Origin: a virus
Taxonomy: Duplodnaviria > Heunggongvirae > Uroviricota > Caudoviricetes
DNA: 24,503 nt
Direction: 5' to 3' (one strand)
IMG/VR virus record: IMGVR_UViG_3300012153_000089
Span: 128,001-152,503 of that record
Position numbers and translations under genes: made by a program. Below, piece by piece: positions 1 through 3,500 of this stretch. Each line of letters opens with the position of its first letter. The stretch's first letter is position 1. The notes under the pieces are model-generated. The model ran no database searches, had not been told where the DNA came from, and saw only the letters and a list, made by a program, of their open reading frames with translations.

Positions 1-402
1 GTAATTGCTAATCTCCCCATCAACCACATTAACACATTTGGGTCTACTGGCTTCCACGAAGCCTCCGATGGAACAATCTGTCTGTCACAGGCAGAGTTAG
101 TCATTACGGAATTCTTTATTTCAAATAATATAAAGTTTGAAAAAGAAGTCCCTTATTGTGAATTTTCCGAGGATGAGCGATGCGGAATGAAAAGGTGCGA
201 CTGGCTATTACCAGATGGAACTGTTATAGAATACTTCGGCATGCCTGAATTAGAGCATTATAAAAAGAAAATGACAAAAAAGTTAGAAATTATTAATGAT
301 AATAAAATAGAATTTATAGCTTTATATCGAAAAGACTTATCAAAATTACATAAAATCTTTAAACCTCTCACAAACGTTTCAACCGTAACGACTAAACGTT
401 GA
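1..402 (+). CDS. Intron-encoded homing endonuclease, C-terminal Vsr/DUF559-like PD-(D/E)xK (EDxHD-related) nuclease domain; 5'-truncated by the window edge
   Basis: Frame 1 is open from base 1 (VIANLPINH...CLSQAELVITEFFISNNIKFEKEVPY...KRCDWLLPDGTVIEYFG...YKKKMTKK...IEFIALYRKD). The S-x-x-E...D-W...IEYFG pattern fits Vsr-like nucleases. The last codons (TVTTKR*) overlap the intron P7 strand, as is typical of intron-embedded endonuclease genes. The provided 71-aa ORF is only its C-terminal part. Confidence 0.75.
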   Translation, partial: VIANLPINHINTFGSTGFHEASDGTICLSQAELVITEFFISNNIKFEKEVPYCEFSEDERCGMKRCDWLLPDGTVIEYFGMPELEHYKKKMTKKLEIINDNKIEFIALYRKDLSKLHKIFKPLTNVSTVTTKR

Positions 403-556
403 CCTTCTATTAAAGTAGAAGATGTTATAGTCTGACCTCTATAGAAATATAGAGAGGATGGGTCAAGTGTAAAGACACTTTTGGAAGTACCTATCCCGCT
501 ATATACCTAGTGATATAGTCAGTAGGGTGAAAAATGCCTGAAAGTAACAGTTTTTG
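1..556 (+). ncRNA. Group I self-splicing intron, 3' part (5' end outside the window), interrupting the tape measure gene
   Basis: R-like element CGTAACGACTAAACG with GACTA at 390-394 and S-like element GAAGATGTTATAGTC with TAGTC at 428-432 form P7. P8 is CTTCTA/TAGAAG (404-421). P9 is CTCTATA-GAAA-TATAGAG with a GNRA loop (437-454). Further stems are GGATGGGT/ACCTATCC (456-496), AAGTGT/ACACTT (465-480) and GCTATAT/ATATAGT (498-519). The terminal G556 is immediately followed by in-frame tape measure codons CGT TAC CAG (RYQ). Confidence 0.9.
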
Positions 557-3500
557 CGTTACCAGCTCACTCGGTTCCTCGCCGTAATGCAAAATTTTCC
601 AATTGCAATTTCTGCAACAGAAGCAGCTATGAATTCTCAAGGCTCAGCAGTACGTGAAAACGAAAAGTACATGCAATCACTTGAGGCACGAATCCAAAAG
701 ATGAAAACAGCATGGGAAACATTGTCCATTGCTTTTGGTGAAGCCGTAATTTCGGATACAATCATCACTCTTACTTCATTATTTGCTGGCATGCTCAACG
801 GTGTCGCTGTCTTAGTAGATAAGGCTGGCGCCCTTCCAGTTGTCTTGGGCGCTATCGGCATAGGTGTTGCTATTCTGCGCCCCAAACTTGCCGCGCTTAT
901 CTGGGATCTTACTAAAACAAATATCACTATGCTTGCAACCTCTCCTGCTGCCGCTGCCGCATCTTTAGGTATGAAGACTTTGGCTGGGGCTATGAATATT
1001 GCCAGAGGCGCAGTAACAGCCCTGAAATTCGCACTCAAAGCCCTACTCGCCTCAACAATCATTGGTGGTGCATTCGTATTGCTTGGTTCTGCTCTCGAAT
1101 GGATAGTAGGTAAATTCTCGGACGCAACAACTGCTACTGAAGATTTTTCAGACAAAACCGAAGAGTTAAATCAGAAACAATATGATCTTTCCAATCTCAA
1201 GGCACTGTCAAAAGAGTATGATGAATTATCCAAAAAGACAGAACTTAGTTTTGATGAAAAATCACGTCTAGCTCAAATTGAAAGTGAATTATCCAGCAAG
1301 TACAACGTAACCACAACTAGTGTTGATGGACAAACGAAATCCTATGATGAGAATAATAAAGCTATTCAAACTCAAATTGGATTAAAAGAAGAAGAATTAA
1401 AAGTTGCTAGGTTAGCTGCGGAAATTGAATATAATTCTAATGCGGATAAAATTGAACGTGACATTGAAAAAGAGAAAAAAGCATTACTTGAGAGAGAAAA
1501 GGCTTATGATGCAGCATTGGCAGCGTATGAAGCAAATAAGACTGAATGGGCAAAAGTTGACCCCAACGACAGTTATGGCAATATGCTTGCCGAATCGAAA
1601 AATAAGCAATTAGCAACAGAATTAAAAGAGCAGGATGATCTATTAACCGCATCTAAAACATCGTTCCAGACTACACTAAATGCTAAGGTTCTTGCCTACA
1701 AAGGTGCTGGTCAATCATTTGTCGACGAGCAAGAAGCAAATAACGTAAAAATTAAAGGTTTAACTCGTGGATTTTTAGATATTTATGCTAATGCGGCAGC
1801 AGAAAGCGGTGTATCCGCTAACCAGTTTAAAAAGAATATAGGCGATGTATTCCGTTCCATTCAAGGTAAAGATCTTGCAAGCGCAGAAGAAGGTATGAAG
1901 CTTCTTAAAGACATGCCGGGAGTACTCAACCTCACATCTACATCCTACAAAGACATGATGTCTATACTCTCACAATACACCTATGCTCCAGTAGTTGAAG
2001 GTGTAGAATCTGTGGATGATGCATTGAATTCTTTTAATTTAACAATGGAAGAAACTGTTGAGCGCACAGATGAAATGTCTCAAAAGATTAGCGAAACAGC
2101 AACCTTTGTCTCTGAAACTAAAAAAGAAATCGATGTTCTTAATACTGCTCAAGCTGAATTAGCAAAAGGGAATCGCTTATCAACTGAAACTATCAAGAAG
2201 ATGAACGACAAATATGGCGACTTCATCAAAGTTACAGGGTTAAGCAAAGAAGCAATTAAGAAGTATGTTGCTGCTAAAAAAGAAGAGCGGATTTCCATTG
2301 TTAATGACGAAATTGCAAAAACCAAGACAACTATTGATGAGACTAAGAAGCGTATTGCTGCTTACGAAATTGAGATGGCTGCTTGGGAGCGTAGACGAAA
2401 AGTTGAAGCATCTGCAAAGATCAAAGAAATTAATTCTCAACTTGAAGCGGGACTTATAACTGAACAGCAAGCTGAACAAATGTTTGGTGTTTACAGAAGA
2501 AATCAGTCTGGTATTGATTCGAACGGGAATATAATAAATAACTCTACTATATCTGATTATGCGATGGAAAGAGCGGCATTAAAAGATTTATTAACCGATT
2601 TGAGTCTTTTGGAAAGTGCAAGAAGTGATCTTACTACAGCTGCAAATGATACAAGCAAAGCTACCAAGGACGCTACCAAATCCAATGACAAATCCAACGA
2701 GTCATATACTGACTCTAATGAGATTTTAACAAAAACTCAGAAGCGTTTATTGGAATTAGCGGATGCAATCAAAAAAGTTCAAAATGAACGAAATACTATG
2801 GTTAAGGGTTCTAAAGAGTATATTGCAAACCTTAAAGAAGAGAAAAAGCTGATTGAAGATCAAATAGCTACTTCAAACAAGGCGCTTAAGAATCCTTCTG
2901 AGTTAGTATCAACCAAAGTTAAGACAACCACTAAAACATCGTCAGGAGAACCCGCACCAAACTCTACAGTGTCAACTTCCTCTTCCACCTCATCACCATC
3001 TGGAGGAAATTACTCTGGTAAATATGCAGATATAATCAATAAATATGCTTCTCAAAATGGTGTCGATCCAAAACTGATAGCCGCTATTATTAAAACTGAA
3101 AGTACATTTAATCCAAATGCAAAATCTGGAGCTGGAGCCGCAGGATTAATGCAACTTATGCCGGGCACCGCAAAGGGCCTAGGTGTTAAAAACTCTTATG
3201 ACCCAGATCAAAACGTAGCTGGTGGTACAAAGTATATTGCAAGTCTCCTTAAGAAATACAATGGTAATTTGGAATATGCTCTTGCAGCATACAATGCTGG
3301 CCCCGGCAATGTAGACAAGTGGATTAAAGCTGGTAAGATGGGAAACATTCCTTTTGCTGAAACTAAAGCTTATGCGCCTAAAGTTTTAGCCAATTATAAT
3401 GAAATCTCTGGTTCAAGCTCCTCTACTTCTAATACAGGTTCAGCAACTAAAGTTAAAACTACAAGTTCCGATGGTAAAACTACAACAGAAGTTACCAATG

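Follow-up and report, generated by a model that had tools for sequence, protein, structure and literature searches.

What interrupts the reading frame at the start of this stretch of phage DNA, and is the tape measure gene behind it one gene or two? The stretch (24,503 nucleotides (nt), hereafter the window) is the final 24.5 kb of IMG/VR record IMGVR_UViG_3300012153_000089 (G000), a 152,503-nt provirus record rated complete. A sequence-only reading had proposed that positions 1-562 hold the end of a group I intron, with a homing endonuclease, inside a tape measure gene. Our analysis makes it very probable that a prophage tape measure gene here contains four group I-type introns and that this part of the window is the 3' half of the last one, which is predicted to self-splice and likely spreads through a homing endonuclease whose gene lies in its P6 loop. 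The flagged intron is confirmed, while three further introns upstream of the window had been missed. Upstream positions are given as negative numbers (G000:C1 position minus 128000), all features of the gene are on the plus strand, s1-s4 are the sites of introns 1-4, and L001 and L002 denote the locus containing the window and SPbeta YomI, respectively.

Structure of the flagged intron

Window positions 1-556 belong to a group I-type intron of 1,422 nt (intron 4, G000:C1:127135-128556, or -865..556), the fourth and last of the gene, and make up its 3' part; the first codon of the intron is TAA. The 5' half lies upstream of the window, with P1 (GGGT/GCCC, 4/4 including the U·G pair) around G000:C1:127134 and with P2 (8/8), P3 (6/6), P4 (5/5), P5 (4/4) and P6 (2/2). 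Intron bases 6-10 (G000:C1:127140-127144) pair 5/5 with the 3' exon strand at window 557-561 to form P10. The core helices P3, P4, P6, P7 and P8 occur in the expected order, including the P3/P7 pseudoknot. A long-range helix of nine base pairs, P6b, joins -762..-754 (G000:C1:127238-127246) to window 365-373 and closes a loop that holds an open reading frame (ORF); both of its arms are retained in all four relatives checked (L004, L009, L051 and L171). The 3' strands of P6a and P6 follow at 374-379 and 383-384. The 3' half of the catalytic core spans 388..433 and comprises P7 (GACTA 390-394 with TAGTC 428-432, 5/5), the 3' strand of P3 (398-403), P8 (404-410/415-421, 7/7) and J8/7. Beyond the core are P9 (437..454; 437-443/448-454, 7/7, with a GAAA loop at 444-447) and a 3' module (456..550) made up of P9.1 (456-463/489-496, 8/8) with its inner hairpin (465-470/475-480, 6/6), P9.2 (498-504/513-519, 7/7), a stem (525-529/535-539, 5/5) closing an AGUA/GAA internal motif, and a conserved GTAACAG. 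The terminal G at 556, the predicted 3' splice site, directly precedes CGT TAC CAG (RYQ). From the window alone, P7, P8, the GAAA-capped P9, the extra stems and the G before RYQLTRF had all been placed correctly, and the proposed group I identity is borne out by the U·G-containing P1, P2-P6 and the perfect P10.

Window 380-556 folds at -45.8 kcal/mol, compared with -33.2 +/- 3.9 for 200 dinucleotide shuffles (z -3.2). An alignment of 13 3' domains, picked for possessing the inner hairpin, shows pairing in 97.6% of cells and changes on both sides in 16 of 29 pairs; this level of covariation was reached in none of 500 shuffles, and slid controls pair at 29-51%. Some results pull the other way. 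Taken by itself, the 5' half is only slightly more stable than its shuffles (z -1.6), the Rfam model RF00028, a check that had been suggested for this region, gives no match to introns 1, 3 or 4 (the core of intron 4 being split by the 1.1 kb ORF), and the minimum-energy fold of the single sequence pairs 498-539 differently from our model, so the stems in that segment rest on covariation.

Subgroup IA introns are defined by one or more extra stem-loops, P7.1/P7.2, between P7 and P3. In intron 4 only 3 nt (395-397) separate the two helices and P7.1/P7.2 are absent, so by this definition it does not belong to subgroup IA; an IB-like assignment is our guess. Group II or IStron identity was also considered for intron 4 and rejected, as it showed motifs of neither kind and no sequence match to a transposase. 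A search for plasmid matches to the intron returned none.

Four introns and the predicted spliced reading frame

Exon 1 (G000:C1 124506-125935, gene start at -3494) is followed by intron 1 (125936-126203, 268 nt, -2064..-1797), exon 2 (126204-126282, 79 nt), intron 2 (126283-126596, 314 nt, -1717..-1404), exon 3 (126597-126671, 75 nt), intron 3 (126672-126939, 268 nt, -1328..-1061) and exon 4 (126940-127134, 195 nt), which ends in GCG GGT at the border of intron 4. Exon 5 (window 557..5581) starts with RYQLTRF and encodes an SLT domain (PF01464). Each of the four inserts comes after a U, paired with G in P1, and is terminated by a G, and every intron brings an in-frame stop within 0-7 codons. 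Removing all four leaves 6,804 nt encoding 2,267 amino acids (aa), with a single stop at the end. The join of exons 4 and 5 reads ...LAG|RYQ, as anticipated by the proposal that the 5' exon would end in U, in a GGT codon. Three uninterrupted relatives (L005, L011 and L013) align over all four junctions without local offset, and SPbeta YomI also runs uninterrupted through s1-s4, with one constant codon offset. The spliced frame is therefore colinear with intron-less homologues, the comparison that had been called for, and the predicted 3' splice site at G556 restores the exon frame.

Judged by its domains and position, the host gene is a tape measure (tail-length) gene, as had been proposed, and of the SPbeta YomI-like type: its product of about 2,300 aa contains PF10145 and the SLT domain by Pfam, and it lies upstream of distal tail genes, directly followed by one for a minor tail protein. 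The nearest cultured phages are SPbeta-like, with 38% identity to YomI, and 44.5% across aa 381-700 (E 6e-87). Exon 1 has five genomic matches, at 88-95% protein identity, all of them in Paenibacillus records, which makes Paenibacillus the likely host genus. All four intron sites fall inside the conserved PF10145 domain.

Introns 1, 2 and 3 fold better than shuffles, with z of -2.3, -6.8 and -3.1 (60 shuffles each). P7 of intron 1 has G-C in place of A-U, and P7.1/P7.2 are present in intron 2 and absent from introns 1 and 3. In a whole-genome search with RF00028, intron 2 alone was found, at 32.3 bits against a cut-off of 50, and neither window 1-3000 nor the four-intron stretch gave more than chance-level matches in Rfam scans. 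A scan of the same genome with a regular expression and BLAST detected no intron beyond the four; the expression is insensitive, since it caught intron 2 alone.

Gene callers return this gene as fragments or as a 1,675-aa protein, and tail-length estimates and annotation go wrong as a result. As had been predicted, an ORF finder starts the downstream part at TTG 554. That the gene is simply split, with its C-terminal 1,675 aa translated separately from this codon, would agree with the open frame that exists there and with public annotation, which splits such genes; we regard this as highly improbable, since no Shine-Dalgarno-like run precedes TTG 554, intron-less homologues form one frame, and the three upstream inserts and the ribozyme helices would be left unexplained. 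Geobacillus virus E3 (NC_029073) illustrates the annotation problem: it is annotated with separate N- and C-terminal tape measure genes because of a 304-nt group I-type intron (L003:6538-6841), 4 nt downstream of s1.

For the four-intron gene, we propose that ribosomes on the late transcript would stop at the in-frame stop just inside each intron. Each intron core would bind GTP at P7 and cut after the U·G pair, and P10 with the terminal G would direct exon ligation, four times per mRNA. The group I chemistry underlying these steps is described in PMC3984707 (here and below, comparison with the literature covers the parts of the cited papers available to us). Full-length protein would require all four events, and we infer that tail assembly depends on splicing.

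The intron-encoded protein

The ORF of intron 4 encodes 378 aa, starting at G000:C1 127266 and ending with TGA at window 400-402, within the 3' strand of P3. As the sequence-only reading had noticed, it terminates inside the catalytic core; its final codons overlap P6b, P6, J6/7, P7 and P3. The part in the window (1..402) covers the end of a PF18780 repeat and then a Vsr/I-Bth0305I-like nuclease domain. A GGAG precedes the ATG with a spacing of just 1 nt. A promoter scan across intron 4 gave 7 sites, compared with 4.9 +/- 1.9 by chance, none of them just upstream of the ORF, and no terminator was found in the intron. Just before the nuclease start, upstream of the window, lies a local hairpin able to compete with P6b (L001:13235-13250), the sequence of which also occurs in L004, L009, L051 and L171. 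This hairpin might link expression of the ORF to folding.

The sole Pfam match of the protein is PF18780. A search among 4,628 candidates found 26 proteins, itself included, and E277, D312, E322, Y332 and K339 are invariant in all 17 aligned sequences. In an AlphaFold model (pLDDT 83), the N-terminal helical repeats match Myb domains. Comparison by VIA relates the C-terminal domain to I-Bth0305I (3r3p; Z 8.6, root mean square deviation 3.5, 90 aligned positions), TnsA (Z 8.1) and Vsr (Z 7.7), with a mitoribosomal chain at Z 8.7. The protein is thereby predicted to combine Myb-like repeats with a Vsr/I-Bth0305I-like nuclease fold and looks like a homing endonuclease, in line with the original suggestion. 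It likely works like an EDxHD enzyme, though the missing histidine keeps it from being filed as one.

Four observations speak against this assignment. No histidine is conserved among the 17 aligned sequences, so the EDxHD motif is not matched; the Z-scores are moderate, near the level that a common fold alone could give; Foldseek returned nothing at E <= 0.001; and Geobacillus virus E3 has a free-standing gene that matches the C-terminal part of the ORF at 35%, so the nuclease domain is not confined to s4. In addition, the ORF gave no sequence match to 3r3p, searches of the ESM Atlas gave unnamed clusters and PF18780 only, and a single-sequence structure prediction of the nuclease domain reached a pLDDT of 40, too low to use.

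Long homologues of the ORF were found at six distinct other loci, five at s4 (L004, L171, L045, L181 and L182) and one 4 nt beyond s4 (L051). All of them sit inside introns of tape measure genes despite differences between the ribozyme cores; the set of loci is biased towards tape measure genes. L181 and L182 were retrieved by the nuclease and not by the host gene, and a nuclease-only search yielded four loci: L004 again, two new s4 introns and one weak, unrelated-looking gene. We propose that the helix-turn-helix/Myb-like repeats would bind DNA and that the Vsr-like domain would cut an intron-less allele near LAG|RYQ. Empty s4 alleles could be cut during co-infection or in polylysogens, and repair would then copy the intron in.

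The introns might also be decayed, with a prophage that no longer produces the full tape measure protein. The record is that of a provirus, each of four splicing steps adds to the chance of failure, and introns 1, 3 and 4 miss the Rfam model. We nevertheless judge decay to be quite unlikely: every modelled helix of intron 4 pairs, neither the 2,267-aa spliced frame nor the 378-aa ORF is broken, third codon positions hold most of the differences from the L004 ORF (101, 68 and 220 at the first, second and third), and CheckV completeness is 100.

Vsr-like domains of a different kind occur in introns at the other sites. Cys-rich ORFs with a YWH-type Vsr-like domain are found in s1, s2 and s3 introns (L006:5537-6786, L007:5881-7298, L010:5616-7032 and L169). 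The YWH motif is retained in the s1/s2 intron ORFs of L006, L007 and L010, and the L007 ORF matches I-Bth0305I (3r3p) at E 1.1e-4.

Probable gain and loss of introns among relatives

Ten relative loci comprise four that are uninterrupted (L005, L008, L011 and L013) and six that carry different subsets of the introns: s1 and s4 in L004, s1 and s3 in L006, s1, s2 and s3 in L007 and L012, s4 in L009, and s2 in L010. A wider search gave a match in 62 of the 401 genomes in the family of G001. At E <= 1e-20 it recovered 41 loci, 28 contiguous and 13 split, three of the latter already among the earlier relatives; 12 of the splits are due to group I-type introns at s1-s4 and one to a group II-like element. 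With 13 of 41 close homologous loci interrupted, and with tail-gene introns reported in PMC2504315, PMC10448857 and PMC3706429, the view that such introns are uncommon does not hold. The largest number of introns per gene among these 41 loci is three (G003 and G375).

The same site can hold introns with different cores, as at s1 (L001 compared with L006 and L173) and at s4 (L001 compared with L171). In L009 the same intron 4 is present in a 389-nt form, from which 1,032 nt of the ORF have been lost in frame between short direct repeats, and intron 2, empty in our gene, contains a nuclease ORF in L007 and L010. Exon flanks are more similar to those of intron-sharing relatives (mean 53.9 of 60 nt, nine cases) than to those of intron-lacking relatives (45.0 of 60 nt, 19 cases), which fits separate arrival with co-conversion. 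Two clear exceptions run counter to this, L004 at s4 (45/60) and the intron-less L011 at s1 (56/60), and the cases are not mutually independent. It is likely that the four introns arrived separately and that three have since lost their nuclease genes. A natural series for the intron and nuclease cycle is thereby available, from the full ORF (G000 and L004) through the in-frame deletion (L009) to empty alleles (L005 and L011).

An alternative is that the introns splice and the phage exploits them, either through serial steps that delay or limit tape measure synthesis or through skipping of exon 3 or exon 4 to give shorter rulers and tails. The lengths of both exons are divisible by three, introns 2 and 3 have identical four preceding exon bases and identical guide bases, and exon skipping is on record for Twort orf142 and a SIOphi polymerase gene (PMC11878797). 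We consider such regulated splicing unlikely, because 28 of the 41 loci are uninterrupted and others carry different subsets, skipping would damage the conserved PF10145 domain in which all sites lie, and the gain and loss of nuclease genes match a selfish cycle. Spread by homing is the reading that we prefer.

Three further loci showed unusual arrangements. In the tape measure gene of L181 (an IMG/VR contig; 1902-3166), group I-type introns of 255 and 1,003 nt surround a predicted 7-nt exon; the join restores ...ATALGG|TYQRN, and four intron cores lie within 3.2 kb. The prophage tape measure gene of L170 (G121:C11:361200-364500, minus strand) holds, about four codons past s1, an insert of about 660 nt that lacks an ORF; we take its GTGCG start and domain V/VI-like end to mark it as group II-like. 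Intron 4 of L004 has its 3' end duplicated on either side of an N (7575-7644), which looks like an assembly artefact.

A shared 3' module and its host genes

The 3' domain of intron 4 had been described as unusually elaborate. It turns out to be widespread: introns 1 and 3 of the gene have the same module, and a pattern derived from it matched at least 122 viral stretches, with about 490 estimated, some of which are chance matches. Among the matches listed, to which the following counts refer, 79 were distinct and extended, and one was dropped; in all 78 remaining, the last stem keeps its first two pairs, with three and five pair types. The AGUA/GAA arrangement is similar to a bulged-G (loop E) motif. 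Within P9.1, the inner hairpin (window 466-479) is nearly invariant, loop included, in all 13 aligned introns with their different cores, which suggests that it may serve as a tertiary contact or binding site.

After removal of two duplicates from 76 downstream frames, 74 were scanned, giving 36 tape measure genes, 17 major head genes, one of an unknown family and 20 with no family. Clustering reduced these to 55 (30 tape measure, 10 major head, one unknown family and 14 with no family), and none of the 41 non-redundant flanks with a family is a nucleotide or replication gene. The tally is biased, because the pattern was derived from tape measure introns. We tentatively suggest, as a possibility somewhat short of even odds, that phage group I introns marked by the module form a large lineage, largely missed by Rfam and residing mainly in virion structural genes, and that an uncharacterised family of Myb-repeat, Vsr-fold homing endonucleases with a catalytic set unlike EDxHD acts on the site at the end of PF10145. 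This would provide a candidate nuclease family and virion genes as common intron hosts. Both PMC11878797 and PMC12350094 ask why DNA-metabolism genes seem to be preferred by phage introns; if the lineage exists, that long-assumed preference would largely be detection bias, and the four-intron gene would offer a compact test system for serial splicing and for exon skipping in tail-length control.

Neighbouring genes

The tail module is interrupted at window 9178-11664 by three accessory genes. Two, as labelled from their sequences, encode an ankyrin-like, secreted-looking protein and a membrane protein of unknown function, and the third encodes an acetyltransferase. Upstream of the window, an integrase-family gene (L001:8958-9959) lies two genes ahead of the tape measure gene. 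Its position resembles that in SPbeta, where yomM precedes yomI by a few genes.

Comparison with known systems

The intron 4 P7-P9 region has weak DNA similarity to annotated introns in Staphylococcus phage tail-tube genes (E 3e-3), and part of a mycobacteriophage minor tail gene is weakly similar to intron 2 (E 2e-3). The T4 td gene is a nucleotide-metabolism gene with an intron of subgroup IA2. Like td/I-TevI (PMC3073962, 2011), intron 4 has its nuclease ORF in the P6 loop, with the last codons running over P6a and P7 ('core creep'), and an in-frame stop just within the 5' splice site. I-TevI is a GIY-YIG enzyme (PMC3239194). A closer parallel to the protein is the EDxHD enzyme I-Bth0305I (PMC3239194, 2011), also from a phage group I intron, with N-terminal DNA-binding repeats and a C-terminal Vsr-like domain; its repeats are of the NUMOD2 type, in contrast to the Myb-like repeats and PF18780 of the ORF here, which has no conserved histidine.

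Introns in other virion structural genes include the three in the tail-tube gene orf142 of Twort (PMC11878797) and those in capsid and tail genes of Cluster J mycobacteriophages (PMC3706429). The host genes differ from ours, and the numbers described there do not exceed three per gene, a count reported for Twort and Bastillevirinae phages (PMC11878797). We found no published case of four introns in one phage gene, although the supplementary lists of PMC11878797 and PMC2504315, or figures, might hold one. The tape measure gene of Vibrio phage ICP1 has three introns with HNH-3 nucleases, and spliced mRNA was demonstrated by reverse transcription PCR (PMC10448857, 2023). It resembles our gene in having multiple introns, and its nuclease gene is found in different introns between isolates; in contrast, the gene here has four introns and its splicing is predicted from sequence.

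The closest precedent is the set of group I introns TMP-IVS1, IVS2 and IVS3a/b, described at three sites in tape measure genes of B. cereus-group prophages (Tourasse and Kolsto 2008, PMC2504315). As in the loci compared here, one site can hold different introns and related introns occur at different sites, and most lack a nuclease gene. The 5' exon of the pBWB404 gene, which according to that paper contains TMP-IVS3b, ends at PF10145 position 201/201 when its boundary is placed from P1, as does exon 4 here; KBAB4 and Paenibacillus exons could not be aligned by pairwise BLAST, so equivalence with the IVS3 site comes from the Pfam model only. The TMP-IVS genes contain one or two introns of classes IA1 and IA2, with an H-N-H nuclease in IVS3a (PMC2504315). 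Our YomI-like gene has four, and its intron 4 differs in lacking P7.1/P7.2, in its 3' module and in its Vsr-fold nuclease. Tape measure genes are thus an already published hotspot for introns, and the case reported here is a dense further example of it, not a new kind of system.

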